A stretch of DNA of 64,000 nucleotides from Actinomycetota bacterium (GTDB lineage: Bacteria; Actinomycetota; Geothermincolia; Geothermincolales; RBG-13-55-18), in NCBI GenBank assembly GCA_040757835.1, contig JBFLWJ010000006.1, forward strand, positions 66,512 to 130,511, given 5' to 3'. The position numbers and the translations under genes are program-made. Below are positions 31,198-40,736 of this stretch, piece by piece; positions within the stretch are counted from its first letter, which is position 1, and each line of letters opens with the position of its first letter. A model generated the notes under the pieces. It ran no database searches. It was not told the DNA's origin and saw only the letters and a list, made by a program, of their open reading frames with translations.

Positions 31198-31237
31198 ATA
31201 TGATGATATCATTTAGCTGATTATGATATCATCATAT
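31198..31237. promoter_or_regulatory. vapBC operator: perfect 15-bp inverted repeat
   Basis: ATATGATGATATCAT-10 bp-ATGATATCATCATAT immediately upstream of the antitoxin RBS. Confidence 0.75.
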
Positions 31238-31246
31238 CTGGAGGTG

Positions 31247-31504
31247 ATGTCGGTGGTCAGGACTGTCATCCAGTTGGACGAGAATCAGTATCGCGAGCTG
31301 AAGAGGATAGCGGGCGAGAGGAACAGATCGATGTCGGCATTGATAAGGGAAGGTGTTAACAAGATCATCCAGGGATCGTTAAGCCCCGAGGACATGAAGA
31401 GGCGTGCCCTGGAAGTAGCCGGCAGGCACCGTTCCGGCATCGCGGACCTGGCGGAAAAACACGACTCATACCTCGCTGAAGATTACGGGGAGAGAAAAGG
31501 GTGA
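31247..31504 (+). CDS. vapB: RHH/CopG antitoxin (VapB-like)
   Basis: 'RTVIQLDENQYRELKRIA..RSMSALIREGV', 'DLAEKHDSYL'; overlaps the PIN toxin by GTGA. Confidence 0.8.
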   Translation: MSVVRTVIQLDENQYRELKRIAGERNRSMSALIREGVNKIIQGSLSPEDMKRRALEVAGRHRSGIADLAEKHDSYLAEDYGERKG

Positions 31505-31899
31505 GGTGTTTCGCCGATACCTCAGCGCTCATAGCGCTTCTGAATGCCGACGATGAGCATCATGCCAGGGCAAGAGCAAGGTGGCAACGGCTGCTCACCA
31601 CGGACGCTTCCATGATCACCAGCAACTATGTCATCCTGGAGACCTTCATCCTCGCCCAGCACCGTCTCGGCATGCAGGCGGCCAGGGACTTCAACGACGC
31701 CGTTGTCCCGGTGCTCAACACGGCATGGATAACGGAGGAGGTTCACAACACGGCGGCGGCCTCGCTCATCATCTCCGGCAAGCGCAACCTCAGCCTCGTT
31801 GACTGCACCAGCTTCGAGATCTGCCGACGTCTGGGCATCGAGAACGCCTTCGCATACGACCGCCATTTCCGCGACCAGGGTTTCAAGCTCATAAACTGA
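31501..31899 (+). CDS. vapC: PIN-domain toxin (VapC)
   Basis: 'FADTSALIA', 'ILET', 'SLVDCTSF', 'AYDRHF'. Confidence 0.9.
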   Translation: MRCFADTSALIALLNADDEHHARARARWQRLLTTDASMITSNYVILETFILAQHRLGMQAARDFNDAVVPVLNTAWITEEVHNTAAASLIISGKRNLSLVDCTSFEICRRLGIENAFAYDRHFRDQGFKLIN

Positions 31900-33980: not shown

Positions 33981-34823
33981 ATGGGTCTGTTCAAGAAGCT
34001 GAGGGTCTGGGAACTCTTCGGCAGGATGATGAACTCCCCCGTGGGCACCAGGTTCATAGACACGTTCCGCAAGCTGGTGGAAAAGGCCATGAGGCTGATA
34101 GCGGCGGGCAAGAGAGAAGAACCGCCCGCTTTCACGCCATGGCGGAAGCCGCTGGCGGAGGCCCGGGTCAGCCTCATCACCACCGCCGGCGTGCACCTGG
34201 CCGAGCAGGAGCCCTTCGACACCGGCGCCGCCCTGGGTGATTCCAGCTACCGTCCCGTCCCGTCCGGTTGCGACGTGCGTTCCCTGTGCATCTCCCACAC
34301 CCATTTCCCGCTGGAGCGCGCGCAGGCGGACATCAACGTCATCCTGCCCATCGAGCGGCTGCGGGAGCTGGCCGGGGAGGGCGTCATCGCTTCCGTGGGC
34401 GAGCACCACTACTGTTTCGGTTTCGACCTCCACGTGAAGGAACTGGTGGACCCCGCCACGGGGACCGCCCACGAGATCGCGCGCGCGCTCAGGGATGACG
34501 GCGTGGACGTGGTGCTGCTCACCCCCGGCTGACCCATGTGCAACCGGGCCGTGAGCCTTATCGCGCGCGTGGTGGAATCCTACGGCATCTGCACCGTGTC
34601 TCTCTCCCTCAACCGCGAGTTGTCGGAGATGATCGGCGCCCCGCGCACCCTCTACCTGCGCTATCCTTACGGCGCTCCCCTGGGGGAGCCGGGCAACGTC
34701 AACCAGCAGAGGGCCATCCTCAAGGACATGTTCGCGGCGCTGGAGACCATCAGGGAGCCGGGGACCATCATCGACCTGCCCTACCGCTGGCGCCGCGACA
34801 CCTTCGCGCCGGTGAGCTTCTAG
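33981..34823 (+). CDS. Glycine/sarcosine/betaine/D-proline reductase selenoprotein B (GrdB/PrdB)-like protein with in-frame UGA (Sec)
   Basis: ORFs 33981-34532 and 34536-34823 are in the same frame and read LLTPG-U-PMC-NRAVSLIAR; GrdB/PrdB-like motifs 'LITTAGVH', 'DINVILP', 'APRTL', 'YGAPLG'; SECIS-like hairpin after the UGA. Confidence 0.85.
34534..34572 (+). promoter_or_regulatory. Candidate bacterial SECIS element
   Basis: CCAUGUGC/GCGCGUGG lower stem, GGGC/GCCU upper stem, G-containing loop CGUGA starting 18 nt after the UGA. Confidence 0.5.
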
Positions 34824-35546: not shown

Positions 35547-35547
35547 T

Positions 35548-35652
35548 CCCAGCCTTGTGGGCTGCACCAGTTTCGAGATATTACGACGCCTGGGTATCGA
35601 GAGGGTTTTCGCCTTCGAAAGGCATTTTCACAATCAGGGATTTAAACCTTAG
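35548..35652 (+). pseudogene. C-terminal vapC fragment
   Basis: Reads PSLVGCTSFEILRRLGIERVFAFERHFHNQGFKP*, homologous to the end of the intact VapC at 31501; no start codon; catalytic Asp positions changed. Confidence 0.8.
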
Positions 35653-35785
35653 ACTGATTTCAACGCTAGCCTTGATTTCCATGTTAGTCTTCTTAATCAG
35701 CTGCAATGCTATATTTATCACTATCCACCAGTATAATTATATTAGTTGTCTTTGGGGCATTCGACACGTGAGAGGGAAACGGGCT

Positions 35786-36009
35786 ATGCAGTATCTAGCG
35801 CATTCTGAGAACGAGTTACATGAGGTGCATGAGAAAGATCTGGATATACCCCATCTCGGCAAAGCGGCAGCTACAAGATATACAAGTCCTCCACGGGCAA
35901 GCGAGTGACAGTTCCTTTTCACTCGGGAAAAATCCTCCACCCCAAAATATTGAGGAATATACTTCGAGATATGGGTTTGACGGTCGAGGAATTCAAAAAA
36001 CTTCTCTAG
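35786..36009 (+). pseudogene. hicA: Frameshifted hicA toxin
   Basis: Frame 35833-36009 reads ERSGYTPSRQSGSYKIYKSSTGKRVTVPFHSGKILHPKILRNILRDMGLTVEEFKKLL*, preceded by an in-frame TGA; GSH His replaced by Tyr; no hicB seen. Confidence 0.75.
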
Positions 36010-36025
36010 CTAGGAAAGCTATCCA

Positions 36026-36880
36026 TCAGGGGATCTTCTCCACGCGGAAGGTGGTGCGCCATGGCGGGGTGCCGTGGCGCATGTAGACCACGCCGCTGCC
36101 GCGCAGCCCCAGGCTCTTGGCCTCACGGTAGACGTAGATGACCGCGTCGTGGGCGCGCGCCCCCAGCTCGGCCCCAGCGTTGTGCACGTGCATCTCCAGG
36201 TGGCGAGAGTCCAGGCCGGCCAGCCTCCCCACCTTGCGGGCGTCCACGTAACAGCGCTTCGACTTGAGCATGAGCCAGTCGCCGGCCTCGCGCGTCTGCA
36301 GCCTCAGGTCCTCTCCCTCCTCGCCCAGGCACTTTCCCGCCATGTCCACCTCCACGCAGCAGGAGTGGGCGCGCCGGAAACAGTAGTCGCCCACCGTCTC
36401 CGCGGTGATGTCCAGGTACCTCGACTTGAGGCCCGCGAAGTTGCCGATGCGCCTCGCCCTGATGGCCAGGCGGCGGTCCGGCGTCCCCTCGGCCTGCATG
36501 CCCACGTAGTCCAGGCCATCCGGTATGTCCAGCACCCCGCCGCCACGGCGGGAATACGACTCCACCCCCAGGCTGGTGAGATAGCCCACCGCTTCGCGCT
36601 GCCACTGCATGCGTAGCTGCAGGTAGTCGGAGGAGGCCTCGTTCATCAGGCGCAGCGCCAGGTCGACCACCTCCGCGTCGTCTCGCGCAGGCAGCGCGCG
36701 CCGCACGCGGGCCTTGGTGAGCTTGTCGCGGGAGCGCAGGTTGAGGAAGAAATCGGCCAGGGCGAACTCGCGGAAGCGCGCCTTGCGCGCCTCCTCCTCG
36801 CGGCGGTTGGCCTCCAGGATGTCCTCCAGGGACTCCCCGCTGCCCGAGAAGATCGGTTTGGGTAACTTCATATGCATCAC
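36026..36880 (-). CDS. Uncharacterised protein with six 18-residue Gly-anchored repeats (GXGXG/FwdC-like beta-helix)
   Basis: GNFAGLKSRYLDITAETV/GDYCFRRAHSCCVEVDMA/GKCLGEEGEDLRLQTREA/GDWLMLKSKRCYVDARKV/GRLAGLDSRHLEMHVHNA/GAELGARAHDAVIYVYRE. Confidence 0.65.
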   Translation of the reverse strand: MMHMKLPKPIFSGSGESLEDILEANRREEEARKARFREFALADFFLNLRSRDKLTKARVRRALPARDDAEVVDLALRLMNEASSDYLQLRMQWQREAVGYLTSLGVESYSRRGGGVLDIPDGLDYVGMQAEGTPDRRLAIRARRIGNFAGLKSRYLDITAETVGDYCFRRAHSCCVEVDMAGKCLGEEGEDLRLQTREAGDWLMLKSKRCYVDARKVGRLAGLDSRHLEMHVHNAGAELGARAHDAVIYVYREAKSLGLRGSGVVYMRHGTPPWRTTFRVEKIP

Positions 36881-36947
36881 CCGCAGGCAACAGGCTCCGG
36901 GTCGCAGCGTCTCGAGCGCAGGCGACTCGTGGCGGAGCGGGCGTGTC

Positions 36948-36981
36948 GAGATTGCTTCGTCACTTTGTTCCTCGCAATGAC
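36948..36981. repeat. GTCATTGCGAGG...GCAATCTC-type palindromic repeat (second REP-like family)
   Basis: GAGATTGCTTCGTCACTTTGTTCCTCGCAATGAC resembles a widespread intergenic repeat class; single copy in this window. Confidence 0.6.
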
Positions 36982-36988
36982 ACTATCT

Positions 36989-38578
36989 TCAAGCGTACAG
37001 GTCGTGGGCCTTGCCGGCCACTACGCGCACCAGGTCCTGTCCCCGCGACACCGGGAATATATCGTAGCCCGCTTGGCGGATGGACTCCGCCTTCTCCGTC
37101 CACGCCTGGTCGATGAGGAAGACCGAGCCGGAGTTCTCCGGGTGCATCAGCAGCGCCTCGCCCAGGTGATAGGAGGCCTCGGAGATATTGGTGATCTCGG
37201 TGTCGGATATGAGGCAGAAATGCTTGGGGCGGTGGGTCTCCAGGGACGCCAGGTGGCGGAACTCCTGCACCGGGAAGACGGTCCCTCCGCCGTAATAGGT
37301 GACCAGCCCCTCCTCCACCCGGCGCAGGTCCCATACCGGCTTGACCACCAGGGAGCGCTGCTGGTCGGAATAGACCACCAGGCCGACCTTTGCCCCGAGG
37401 TTGCCGGCGCTGCGCGCCATCACGAAGCCGGCTAGCACGGCGTTGGCCACCTCGGAGGTGGGGTTGGTCATGGATCCGGAGGCGTCCAGGATGATGATGA
37501 CGTCCGGGGGCGTTTTGCGCCGCGACACCACCTCCATCTGTACCTTCTCCCACTGCTTGGTGGTGAGGGTGGGCACCGCCTTGCCGCAGGTGTACAGGGT
37601 ATAGGGGAGGTCGAGGCGCTCGAAGGGGTCTGCCATCCCCCAGGCCAGGGGAGCGTGGGGGACTTCTTCCCCCGCCTCGCTGCGCACCGGCTGGAAGCGC
37701 ACCTCGTAGCGGCGGGAGAGGTCGCGGTAGTACCAGACCAGGGCCTGGGTCTCCGAACCGGCCCCTATCCCCCCCACCAGCTCCTTGAAGTCCTGCATGC
37801 CCATCTCCATGGCCATGGAGCGCAGCGCCTCCTCGGCGGAGCGCGCGCGCAGGTCGTCTATGCCGTGGTCCATGAGGCGGCTGTCGTCCATGTCCGCGGG
37901 GTCCTCGTAATAGCGGTGGAGGTAGCCCACGAGGAAGCGCACCTTCTCCTCCCACCCCGCCGCGGCGAAGGGCCGGTCCAGCACGCGCGCGGCCAGGCGG
38001 CGGGCGTCATCGCGCATCTCCTTGGGCACCCTGCCCACCAGGGTATCGGGGGCCTCCCACATCTCCTCGAAACAGCAGAGAAGGAACTTCCATATCTTGG
38101 TCTGCTTCTGCCCCTTTGACTTGTCCAGGGCATGGTAGAGGCCGATCATCTGTTCGCGCATGCCGCTGCGGGCAGCATAGGTGACGTTTACCATGTCGCA
38201 GAAGAGGCGCTGGATGGATATGGCCTCCTGGAAGGTGACCGTGCGCCCGCGGTCCTTCACCTCCTCCAGGGCCAGCTTAGCCGAGGCGGTGAGGCGCAGC
38301 GAGGTGCGCATGTCGAAGGGGGCCAGGGCGTAATGGAGCAGCTGGTAGACCACCACGGCTTCCATGTTGCGCATACCCAGCTTCTCCATGACCTCGGGGA
38401 CGTTGATGTACACGCGGTTCTCCGAGGGTTCCCAGATGCCGAACTCTTCGTTGAGCTTGGCGGCGAAGGCGTGCCCGGCGGGATCGATCACGAACTCGGG
38501 GTCCATGATGCGGGGGTAACTGCAGAAAGCCCGCGCCCGCCCCAGTATCTCGTCTAAGTCGACGCCCTGAATGCGCAA
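36989..38578 (-). CDS. vWA-domain protein with a degenerate N-terminal zincin-like domain
   Basis: MIDAS DASGS..GGT..ISD; N-terminal 'VYQLLHYALAP' in the HExxH position plus 'FCDMVN'; TTG start with RBS GGAGGT. Confidence 0.78.
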   Translation of the reverse strand: MRIQGVDLDEILGRARAFCSYPRIMDPEFVIDPAGHAFAAKLNEEFGIWEPSENRVYINVPEVMEKLGMRNMEAVVVYQLLHYALAPFDMRTSLRLTASAKLALEEVKDRGRTVTFQEAISIQRLFCDMVNVTYAARSGMREQMIGLYHALDKSKGQKQTKIWKFLLCCFEEMWEAPDTLVGRVPKEMRDDARRLAARVLDRPFAAAGWEEKVRFLVGYLHRYYEDPADMDDSRLMDHGIDDLRARSAEEALRSMAMEMGMQDFKELVGGIGAGSETQALVWYYRDLSRRYEVRFQPVRSEAGEEVPHAPLAWGMADPFERLDLPYTLYTCGKAVPTLTTKQWEKVQMEVVSRRKTPPDVIIILDASGSMTNPTSEVANAVLAGFVMARSAGNLGAKVGLVVYSDQQRSLVVKPVWDLRRVEEGLVTYYGGGTVFPVQEFRHLASLETHRPKHFCLISDTEITNISEASYHLGEALLMHPENSGSVFLIDQAWTEKAESIRQAGYDIFPVSRGQDLVRVVAGKAHDLYA

Positions 38579-38585
38579 ACCGGCC

Positions 38586-40070
38586 TCACCTCCGGGTCTC
38601 GCGCGCTATCTCCCGGTAGACCTGGCGCAACATGGTGGCGATGGGGTACTTCGCCGGAGAATCGTAGCTCTTGAGCGAGTCCAGGGCCTCGAGGACCAGG
38701 CCGGCATCGACGGACTGGTTCCTAACCGCCTGCTCGTACAGCTCGAGCACGCCGTCCAGGGTCTTGATCATGCGCCGGCTCTTGAGGTAATGGTTGCGCG
38801 AGGTGGCGAAGAGGTCCTGCACCAGGGCGATGCGGTCGTTCATGAACTCGGGCCGCTCCGACCAGGCACGGTCGGTGGGGATCAGCTTGAACCACAGCAC
38901 GTAGGGTACCACCGCTTCCACTTCCTCCAGGCCCGCCCGCTCGCGCCCGCGGAACCAGGCCAGCGCCTTGGCATAGCGCTCGATTGTCTTGCCCGCACGC
39001 ACGCTGACCTCGTTCTCTGTCTTGTAACAGATGTTCTCGGTATTGTGGTAATGGCAGCCGCCCAGGTGTCCGCCGCCGCCTGCTCCCCCGTCGTCCACCT
39101 GTGAGCAGAGTATGGGGGGCTTCACGAACCAGGCGAAGCCCTTGCTCTTCCGCTCGATGTCCGGGGAGGCCAGGGTACAGCCGTTGAGCTCGGAGATGAA
39201 ATTGTAGAGGATGTAGAGGGCGTCGGGCTCGATCTCTATCGCGGCAATCTCTTCCCTCATGGTCTCGATGTCGGCTGTGGATATCTCCACCCCTATCTCG
39301 TCACGGAGGTGGGACACGTACGACTCCTCGTTGCCGGTGAGCTTGCGGTCCTCCCCACCCTGCGCCATCTCCAGGAAATAGGGGTTGAGCGTGGGCGCGA
39401 AGACCCCCACGTCGATACGGTCGAGGAAGGGCGGCGTGAGATCGGACGACGCCACGTCGCGGAAGTTGGCGGTGAGGAAGGTCGCGCCCTCCGCAGCGTA
39501 GATCTTGGAGTCGCCGTAGACCGAGAAACCACGGTCCATCATCTCTAAGAGGTTGTTGGTGCGGCCGGGAGTGAGGCGGTTGACCTCGTCCACCATGCGG
39601 AAAGGGGAGAGCATGAACTTTCGCGGGATGATGTCTTCCTCGCCGTCGCGCATGAGCTTGCCCAGGTGCGGGCGGCCGATCATCTTCTCCTCGGTCAGTT
39701 CGTGGTGGCCGTGGATGGTCGCTTCGTGTATGGCCTCCATGACCTTGAAGTCGGCCTCGCCGTCCCCGAAGGCCTCCTTGAGCATGGTGCCGTGCACGAA
39801 GGCGCCCACGAACTCGGCCGAGGTGGTCTTGCCGGATCCGGGTGAGCCATAGAGGATCATGGTGCCGTTGCGCAGCACCGAGGTGAGCAGGGCCATGAGC
39901 AGGGGAGAGTTGTAACTCTCCTCGGCGATGACGATGCTCTCGGTCTCGTTCAGGTTGAGCGGCACTTCCTTCTGCTCGTGGAAACGCACATCGTGGTTGA
40001 GGTTGATATAAAGCCCGCTGTCCTCGATGGCCTTGTAGATACGTTGCAGCTTAAGGTTCAAATCGCTCAT
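38586..40070 (-). CDS. MoxR-like AAA+ ATPase
   Basis: Walker A GSPGSGKT, Walker B MVDEVNR, 'LTAN', 'FLDRI', 'SVRAGKT'. Confidence 0.85.
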   Translation of the reverse strand: MSDLNLKLQRIYKAIEDSGLYINLNHDVRFHEQKEVPLNLNETESIVIAEESYNSPLLMALLTSVLRNGTMILYGSPGSGKTTSAEFVGAFVHGTMLKEAFGDGEADFKVMEAIHEATIHGHHELTEEKMIGRPHLGKLMRDGEEDIIPRKFMLSPFRMVDEVNRLTPGRTNNLLEMMDRGFSVYGDSKIYAAEGATFLTANFRDVASSDLTPPFLDRIDVGVFAPTLNPYFLEMAQGGEDRKLTGNEESYVSHLRDEIGVEISTADIETMREEIAAIEIEPDALYILYNFISELNGCTLASPDIERKSKGFAWFVKPPILCSQVDDGGAGGGGHLGGCHYHNTENICYKTENEVSVRAGKTIERYAKALAWFRGRERAGLEEVEAVVPYVLWFKLIPTDRAWSERPEFMNDRIALVQDLFATSRNHYLKSRRMIKTLDGVLELYEQAVRNQSVDAGLVLEALDSLKSYDSPAKYPIATMLRQVYREIARETRR

Positions 40071-40290
40071 ATCCAGGCTCTCTCCTCTTCTTCTGCTCTA
40101 CCCCCGCCCGCCATGCTCTCCCGCCCGGCGGGGCCTCTGATATAATGATTCTACCTTATCTCGATGGCGGTAAGGATAATGTTCGTCAAAGTGGGGTCTC
40201 GGGTTTTCACTCTCGAATCTGAAGACGTGTAAGCCGCTACCGGCGGGTGGAGGCCCCGTCCTCGCGGGGGAGATGGCAAGGGAGGTAGCC

Positions 40291-40497
40291 GTGGAGACCG
40301 AGAAACTCGTAAAGATCGGCAAGCAGCTCGCGATCATGCACTTCTTCGAGGCCTTGCTCGCCAGGCGCGCGGCCAGGAAGCGTGGACTGAAGCCGAACAG
40401 GTATTTCTGCCTCACCCTGATGTTCGGGGTCTTCGTGCTGGTCCCGCTGCTGCGCAAGCCCAAGCTGGAGAAGAAGGCCGCCGCGGTAGACATCTAG
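40291..40497 (+). CDS. Small membrane protein (TMEM254/DUF4499-like)
   Basis: RBS GGAGGT + GTG; 'HFFEA...AARKRG...TLMFG..LVPLLRKPK'. Confidence 0.6.
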   Translation: METEKLVKIGKQLAIMHFFEALLARRAARKRGLKPNRYFCLTLMFGVFVLVPLLRKPKLEKKAAAVDI

Positions 40498-40499
40498 CG

Positions 40500-40736
40500 G
40501 TGGAGCCACGGGTGGATATGGAACCGGGCTGGCCGATAAGGGCCTTGAAGCTCTGGATCTTTGCCGCGGTGGTCGGCCATACCCTGCAGGCCCCCTTCGC
40601 CTACTTCGCCGCCAGGAAGAGGGGAGAGGACCCGTGGAGATGCGTCTACGACACCTTGGCCCTGGGGGCCATCGCCCTCATCCCCCTGCTGCGCAAACCC
40701 AAGCTGGCCGATGAGGCCGGACGAGTGAACGCCTGA
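40500..40736 (+). CDS. Small membrane protein, paralog of the preceding gene
   Basis: 'HTLQA...AARKRG...TLALG..LIPLLRKPK'; alternative start at 40518. Confidence 0.6.
   Translation: MEPRVDMEPGWPIRALKLWIFAAVVGHTLQAPFAYFAARKRGEDPWRCVYDTLALGAIALIPLLRKPKLADEAGRVNA

Follow-up and report, generated by a model that had tools for sequence, protein, structure and literature searches.

Gene organization of the locus

We analyzed a 64,000-nucleotide stretch of the actinobacterial assembly GCA_040757835.1 (Actinomycetota, Geothermincolales; contig JBFLWJ010000006.1, forward-strand positions 66,512–130,511), hereafter called the window, and focused on three co-oriented open reading frames (ORFs) on its minus strand at positions 36026–40070. 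In reading order, these ORFs encode a MoxR-type AAA+ ATPase (494 aa, 38586–40070), a partner protein with a pseudo-zincin N-terminal domain, a helical middle part, a disordered linker and a C-terminal domain of the von Willebrand factor A (vWA) type (529 aa, 36989–38578), and a third protein (281 aa, 36026–36871); together they are referred to as the trio, and all of their features given below lie on the minus strand. The junction of the ATPase and partner genes (38579–38597), as read directly from the sequence, has the layout of translational coupling, with 7 bp between the ATPase stop codon and the TTG at which the partner gene initiates, and a GGAGG motif that overlaps the ATPase stop codon. 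A spacer of 108 bp separates the partner gene from the third gene. This spacer contains, 5' of the third gene, a 33-nt motif (TCATTGCGAGGAACAAAGTGACGAAGCAATCTC, 36948–36980) with a single occurrence in the window. The motif was considered as a repeat element and rejected, because its 30-nt core (one N, ≤2 mismatches) is unique in the genome and the motif thus does not represent a repeat family here. In a consensus scan, promoter-like sites were absent from the operon strand and terminator-like sites were absent altogether.

A MoxR-clade ATPase with a Cys/His-rich insertion

The family profile of the ATPase matched MoxR (2r44, 6e-20) best among PDB entries, followed by BchI/ChlI and midasin, and on the basis of these profile matches the protein is assigned to the MoxR clade of AAA+ ATPases. 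Pfam AAA_lid_2 was the sole Pfam model above its cut-off (28.7 bits vs. 22.7 bits). Subfamily models from Pfam and NCBIfam (AAA_3, CbbQ_C/NorQ, RavA domains, GvpN, BchI/chelatase) were all far below their cut-offs, with best NCBIfam scores of 10–14 bits against cut-offs of 180–510 bits. Seven MoxR subfamilies have been described (PMC3893208). Alignment A4, with 34 homologues, shows no variation at the catalytic residues of the Walker A P-loop GSPGSGKT (residues 75–82, 39825–39848), Walker B VDEVNR, sensor-1 N202 and arginine finger R218, and R358 is the sensor-2 candidate; within Walker A, T82 does not vary, and conservation of G75, G78, G80 and K81 reaches at least 90%. The protein also carries a C-terminal helical extension.

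A Cys/His-rich insertion is located between the AAA core and the lid (residues 297–350, 39021–39182) and contains C297, C324, C341-H-Y-H and C350 (C..C..GGCHYH..C), with the four cysteines conserved across the family apart from one sub-branch of the aligned homologues that has lost them altogether. Archaeal relatives read C...LCxxCH[YF]...C at this site, which identifies the four-Cys element, as judged from alignment A4, as an ancient feature of the ATPase family, and the window's clade has enlarged the ancestral CxxC by a Gly-rich stretch of about 14 residues. The insertion most likely is metal-knuckle-like and represents a putative structural or regulatory metal site.

A partner protein with a predicted pseudo-zincin and an intact MIDAS

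In the AlphaFold2 (AF2) model of the partner protein (predicted local distance difference test score, pLDDT, 82.3), a small beta-sheet precedes a long helical N-terminal part, and a disordered linker (residues ~300–351) then leads to a C-terminal alpha/beta domain. In the N-terminal part, residues 78–82 (38333–38347) read YQLLH in place of the ancestral HExxH, so that the HExxH with catalytic Glu that characterizes an active zincin is absent. Two archaeal operon partners and the distant match P0222 have HEVGH or HEIGH in the same alignment columns (alignment A3), and three distant actinobacterial relatives carry HEIGH or HELGH at this position. Alignment A3, in which the window's clade predominates, has an invariant H82 and conservation of at least 90% at Y78 and Q79. 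The family profile additionally places YQLLH on the HELLH of the minigluzincin MJ1213 (PDB 4qhf), with an E-value of only 0.12 but in register with the preceding strand, a 'YIN' motif and the helix. Because relatives outside the clade keep HExxH where the clade has YQLLH, the alignments characterize the N-terminal domain as a lineage-specific natural pseudo-zincin, in which the first zinc ligand and the catalytic Glu have been replaced and the replacement has been fixed in the clade.

Foldseek matches of the whole partner model were dominated by the vWA domain (residues ~355–529, 36989–37516), and the C-terminal domain matched integrin I-domains, ANTXR2 and TFIIH p44 (probability 1.0, E ~1e-4 to 1e-5). 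The Pfam VWA model scored slightly below its cut-off (E = 1.2e-4). The metal ion-dependent adhesion site (MIDAS) motif DASGS (37472–37486) is intact, with D365, S367 and S369 invariant and T433 and D459 at least 90% conserved in alignment A3; by fold and by its DxSxS, T and D residues the domain thus belongs to the vWA/MIDAS group. No effector domain was found C-terminal to the vWA domain and no beta-propeller was present in the partner model.

Much of this architecture had been described in the original prediction, which was made from the window alone: ORF coordinates and spacer length bear out a co-oriented three-gene set with the first two genes 7 bp apart, the 2r44 profile match, the Foldseek result and the invariant DxSxS agree with a MoxR-type ATPase paired with a vWA protein, the comparison with HExxH relatives and MJ1213 corroborates a probably dead peptidase-like domain with YQLLH, and the Cys/His-rich insertion of the ATPase is recovered at residues 297–350.

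A third protein with a helical domain and a predicted beta-helix

The ORF list places the start of the third gene at GTG 36880 (284 aa). Homologues are mostly 281 aa long and begin with MK/RxP, and a GGGTGA motif is found 5 nt upstream of ATG 36871; this ATG (281 aa) most likely is the true start codon. The AF2 model of the third protein (45 sequences, pLDDT 92.6) shows a helical domain followed by a beta-helix with strands every 18 residues. The N-terminal helical domain (residues 18–111 in the 284-aa numbering, helices H18–38 to H92–111; 36548–36829) ends in the family signature GYLTSxGAE...VPDGLDYVG..AEG, which is kept in remote homologues as well. The predicted right-handed beta-helix (residues 137–267, 36080–36472) comprises seven rungs of 18 residues, which run free of insertions and deletions from residue 137. 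Acidic residues that are invariant in the third protein include E107, D124, D165, D201, D224 and E238. Autocorrelation of the sequence gave z-scores of 7.0, 6.6 and 5.6 at lags of 18, 36 and 54 residues (500 shuffles). Of the six exact 18-aa repeats proposed originally, the exact period therefore stands, whereas the count is seven and the exactness is one of repeat length, not of sequence.

Searches of the third protein against Pfam (E ≤ 1), NCBIfam, PADLOC, PHROG and PDB sequence libraries returned zero matches, and direct searches with the ATPase and the partner returned matches of a generic kind only. At the level of structure, the best PDB fold match was FwdC (5t5i_C), which led by TM-score, root-mean-square deviation (r.m.s.d.; 2.9 Å over 168 columns) and probability (0.91) at a Foldseek E-value of 1.4 that is not significant. 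A comparison of the third-protein profile with the genome's own GXGXG protein by hhalign was negative (probability 0.14), and a Foldseek search of the model against viral structures retrieved generic tailspike beta-helices only (E > 0.7). The proposed FwdC/GXGXG-like beta-helix behind a helical N-terminus thus agrees with the model as a type of fold: the likeness is probably real at that level, and the profile comparison for homology is negative. The third-protein family is essentially confined to the window's clade. A profile search of 1.8 billion representatives recovered remote homologues with both the helical signature and the beta-helix, one of them with a weak match to PF01493 (E = 1.3e-3); the two genomic contexts of remote homologues that were read were short or uninformative.

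Linkage, distribution and selection

The trio is present in all genomes (24 of 24) of the window's family, an uncultured, anaerobic actinobacterial family, and is linked in nearly every carrier. It occurs as a single copy per genome with invariant architecture, and the order ATPase, partner, third gene as well as the orientation are constant wherever all three genes share a contig, so that the association of the third gene with the ATPase/vWA pair that had been predicted from one locus extends to related genomes. A close homologue is assigned to 'Candidatus Solincola' in one source. Upstream synteny is conserved within the family and consists of a divergently oriented gene for a small membrane protein (sm74), followed by genes for a TetR regulator and a flavin adenine dinucleotide (FAD) oxidoreductase. 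In two genomes of other families (G027 and G033), the trio resides in different metabolic contexts that lack sm74 and have no other flanking gene in common with the window's family. The neighbors of the trio are metabolic or regulatory in three independent contexts.

Identity to the window copy within the family was 78–92% for the ATPase and 82–94% for RpoB; conservation of the ATPase is thus about RpoB-like. The ratios of nonsynonymous to synonymous substitution rates (dN/dS), computed by the Nei–Gojobori method, were 0.07–0.13 for the ATPase, 0.12–0.21 for the partner and 0.12–0.30 for the third gene, with values of 0.16–0.21 for the neighboring FAD oxidoreductase and 0.21–0.33 for the neighboring TetR regulator. 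All three genes of the trio are under purifying selection, and the third gene is the fastest-evolving of them.

Genomic surroundings of the trio

Two tandem paralogous genes for small membrane proteins of 74 and 78 aa lie at 40273–40736 of the window in divergent orientation to the ATPase gene, and one of the proteins matches TMEM254 (E = 4.5e-5). A copy holds the same position in most family genomes examined. The candidate sm74 was rejected as a component of the system because it is missing from the trio loci of G027, G033, G015 and G019. A glycoside hydrolase family 13 (alpha-amylase family) gene with DUF3459 is found near the trio in G033 and G027 (L017 14061–15695, L018 11930–13741). There is no alpha-amylase among the window genes examined, and the placement in G027 and G033 may be coincidence or residual synteny.

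On the other side, the third gene is followed by an AT-rich spacer (35547–36025; G+C content 0.39–0.49 compared to ~0.63 in the surrounding window) that extends to a Dph6-like gene. The spacer holds a C-terminal VapC fragment (35548–35652, SLVGCTSFEILRRLGIERVFAFERHFHNQGFKP), a paralogue of the VapC encoded at 31501–31899, and a HicA-like pseudogene frame (35833–36009), the upstream part of which is broken by stop codons. Toxin-antitoxin (TA) debris hence sits directly downstream of the trio in the window. Further away, a VapB (ribbon-helix-helix)/VapC (PIN) pair with overlapping start and stop codons (31223–31899) looks intact, so that the originally proposed decay of nearby TA genes applies to the VapC fragment and the HicA-like pseudogene and not to this pair. 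In the congener G007, the third gene abuts a selenoprotein gene, which leaves no room for the AT-rich spacer. Two in-frame ORFs split by a single stop codon are located at 33981–34823 of the window.

Deviating layouts were observed in a few genomes. The cluster that lies between the pair and the third gene in G015 (L022 4860–17600) is co-oriented and encodes a TetR regulator, two acyl-CoA ligases, a thiolase, two acyl-CoA dehydrogenases, a nitroreductase and two short-chain dehydrogenases/reductases; the trio is contiguous in G019, a congener of G015. In G036 (L028 8327–9808), only a vWA domain (78% identical) is encoded, by a 182-aa ORF that has an ATG of its own; the pseudo-zincin part is missing, and an intact third gene comes next. 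Partial paralogues of the third gene (residues 4–180, 62–63% identical) are found away from the trio in three genomes (G005:C73:5698-6228, G007:C32:6447-6977, G008:C46:19870-20400). They correspond to 229-aa proteins in public annotation, with an Arg/Pro-rich tail that resembles an out-of-frame continuation.

Relationship to known MoxR–vWA systems

MoxR–vWA pairs have an established mechanism in which a client is captured by the MIDAS and then remodeled in an ATP-driven manner (PMC3893208, PMC7159879). The trio resembles the NorQ–NorD, CbbQ–CbbO, CoxD–CoxE and RavA–ViaA systems in that a MoxR-clade ATPase adjoins a partner in which a linker connects a helical N-terminal domain to a MIDAS vWA domain at the C-terminus. 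It differs from all four by an ATPase of 494 aa with the four-Cys insertion and the C-terminal extension, to which no subfamily model applies, and by a partner whose N-terminal domain is zincin-derived; genes for known clients (Rubisco, nitric oxide reductase, carbon monoxide dehydrogenase and Nuo) are not linked to it. The pair thus matches no model of a characterized MoxR subfamily, in keeping with the view taken in the original prediction. The peptidase-like domain has a likeness to MJ1213, from which it is set apart by the replaced catalytic His and Glu in the window's clade and by being embedded in a 529-aa protein. DUF2201_N/DUF2201-type proteins, which are likewise paired with a MoxR ATPase, follow the same two-domain plan as the partner, with a vWA-like domain and, at the N-terminus, an HExxH metallopeptidase-like domain. 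PF13203 (DUF2201_N) had no match in the window's genome or 20 relatives (E ≤ 0.01), whereas Thermotoga and Deinococcus controls matched; the partner therefore appears to be a separate or much diverged family in which the peptidase motif was lost.

Distant dyads of an AAA ATPase and a zincin–vWA protein were found in archaea and elsewhere, with only three carriers among about 350 other Actinomycetota sampled. Their layouts vary, with a MORC-like HATPase in one, strings of small ORFs in others, and reverse-transcriptase and TA genes adjoining one. A search for genes like the third gene beside these distant dyads found none. Taken together, the sequences point to a large unnamed AAA/zincin–vWA family with variable extra partners, which includes versions predicted to be active peptidases in archaea and a few Actinomycetota. 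Three archaeal metagenome contigs (L011, L015, L031) share a conserved six-gene operon with an adjacent TrmB regulator. It starts with genes for a coiled-coil protein (~350 aa), a classical AAA protein (462–520 aa), a MoxR-like AAA protein and an HExxH zincin–vWA protein, and ends with those for a P-loop protein (443–498 aa) and either a coiled-coil protein (475–491 aa) or a 705-aa transglutaminase-core protein.

Ternary MoxR–vWA conflict systems have as their third component VMAP-C, iSTAND, a double FtsH AAA or a beta-propeller on the vWA protein (PMC7159879), and catalytically dead peptidase domains are frequent in them (Kaur et al. 2020, PMC7159879). The trio shares with these systems the MoxR–vWA core, a third conserved protein and the dead peptidase. 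Those archaeal relatives that have a classical AAA in addition are similar to the 'simple' FtsH type, where vWA is fused to an alpha-helical N-terminal domain (PMC7159879). In contrast to the conflict systems, the trio has a predicted beta-helix as its third protein instead of VMAP-C, iSTAND or FtsH and lacks a variable effector behind the vWA domain; it is also a syntenic core element with one copy per genome and an unvarying architecture, with no paralogous diversification. The predicted beta-helix of the third protein can itself be compared with the GXGXG beta-helix (PF01493) of FwdC and of the GltB C-terminal domain, in that it is right-handed and has one Gly-rich turn motif per rung. It differs in its period of exactly 18 residues, compared to about 19 (counted from the sequence) in the genome's own GXGXG protein, and in the additional N-terminal helical domain with its own signature.

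Proposed function and alternative explanations

We propose, as an interpretation to which we give an even chance of being right, that the three genes constitute one dedicated MoxR–vWA remodeling (chaperone-like) module with a housekeeping-like role, of which the beta-helix protein would likely be the client or an adaptor. The proposal builds on the observed gene linkage and conservation pattern, the folds of the domains, a catalytic motif that has been lost and motifs of the ATPase and the MIDAS that are intact, and from these we infer that the proteins form a complex, what role the third protein has and what the client is. The ATPase would assemble as a hexameric ring, with the four-Cys/His insertion holding a structural or regulatory metal, and the partner would dock on this ring via its helical and pseudo-zincin part. 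With HExxH changed to YQxxH, the pseudo-zincin would be unable to cleave, but it may still grip a peptide segment in its groove; a Glu-to-Gln exchange in HExxH is the classic substrate-trapping change. The intact MIDAS of the vWA domain would capture an acidic residue of the client, and ATP hydrolysis would pull on the client or reshape it. Since no other protein accompanies the pair when its genomic context changes, this client or a client-adaptor, e.g., a scaffold with a controlled assembly state, would best be sought in the beta-helix protein. The role of the module in this actinobacterial family would be physiological and housekeeping-like instead of an arms race. It would descend from the wider AAA/zincin–vWA family and may have arisen when an ancestral, possibly conflict-type dyad became fixed in the lineage, lost its peptidase activity and gained a beta-helix partner.

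Several observations weigh against this proposal. Outside the window's family, where its carriers include G027, G033 and G041, the trio is patchily distributed in the class (1 of 5 genomes of family f3, 3 of 19 of family f4) and variable within genera, and in G033 an ATPase identity to the window copy (81.7%) that exceeds that of RpoB (74%) argues for lateral acquisition. The pair and the third gene are separated by a 12.7-kb acyl-CoA metabolism cluster in G015, and G036 retains the third gene next to a vWA ORF that stands alone, the ATPase being absent; this arrangement could be a locus in decay or else a minimal vWA/beta-helix pair. The remote homologue that matches PF01493 is encoded on a 3.7-kb contig without a MoxR or vWA gene, and no client candidates beyond the third protein were identified. 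Some of these points would also fit another explanation, namely that the ATPase–vWA pair alone is the functional unit and the beta-helix gene a lineage-specific neighbor with an independent function, to which the 108-bp gap in the window, the stand-alone partial paralogues in three genomes and the distant dyads without a third-like gene can be added. We regard this explanation as highly improbable, given that the third gene has moved along with the pair to unrelated sites in two genomes of other families (G027, G033) and that loci with all three genes together show one and the same order and orientation.

Placement of the trio in an accessory or defense island had been part of the original prediction, and a corresponding explanation would be a ternary MoxR–vWA system that acts against phages or in other conflicts, with the third protein as sensor or effector and the dead peptidase as decoy or trap for an invader protein. 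It would account for the patchy distribution and lateral transfer outside the family, the TA remnants next to the trio and the fastest evolution of the third gene within it. Inactive peptidases are common in the described ternary systems (PMC7159879), and distant dyads are part of multi-NTPase operons (classical AAA, P-loop protein, transglutaminase, MORC-like HATPase) or have TA and reverse-transcriptase neighbors. Matches to PADLOC were, however, of P-loop length only (IetA, DolB; ~25–60 residues, E ~1e-3), homologues of the trio were sought in PHROG, plasmids and phages and none were found, and the trio is devoid of VMAP-C, iSTAND, FtsH, a beta-propeller or an effector C-terminal to vWA. 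Single-copy core status in 24 of 24 genomes, fixed synteny, RpoB-like conservation and purifying selection on all three genes are likewise at odds with such a system. Because of the missing PADLOC, phage and plasmid link and the metabolic neighbors in three independent contexts, the defense-island placement is unsupported, and we consider a conflict function unlikely. Also rather unlikely in our judgment is a machine for insertion of a metal center or cofactor (CoxD/E, NorQ/D or chelatase type) into an enzyme encoded elsewhere, with the beta-helix protein as a scaffold subunit like FwdC or the GltB C-terminal domain. The best-characterized MoxR–vWA pairs do mature metalloenzymes (PMC3893208, PMC7159879), the ATPase has its Cys/His cluster, the conservation is housekeeping-like, and the best match of the beta-helix, FwdC, is a scaffold subunit of a metalloenzyme complex. 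Against these points stand the lack of a metalloenzyme gene consistently linked across the three genomic contexts, the scores of the chelatase, NorQ and CbbQ models, which are all below cut-off, and the hhalign probability for GXGXG of just 0.14.

Implications

MoxR–vWA pairs are widespread, and only a handful have a known client. The wider AAA/zincin–vWA family places its active-peptidase members in conflict-system-like operons, and the trio illustrates that composition alone is insufficient to call a MoxR–vWA trio a defense system. A more speculative version of its history, which we hold to be quite improbable, is that the trio is the domesticated descendant of an archaeal or bacterial multi-ATPase conflict system, in which, in this actinobacterial family, a beta-helix protein that forms polymers is gripped jointly by the dead peptidase and the MIDAS while its assembly is under the control of the ATPase; if true, this would represent a new ATP-regulated scaffold or cytoskeleton-like element. 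The locus combines a naturally inactivated zincin (H to Y, E to Q), an intact MIDAS and a private beta-helix partner in one operon. Owing to this combination and to the RpoB-like conservation of the ATPase, the operon offers a compact three-protein system for studying how a pseudo-peptidase and a MIDAS may cooperate in client capture.

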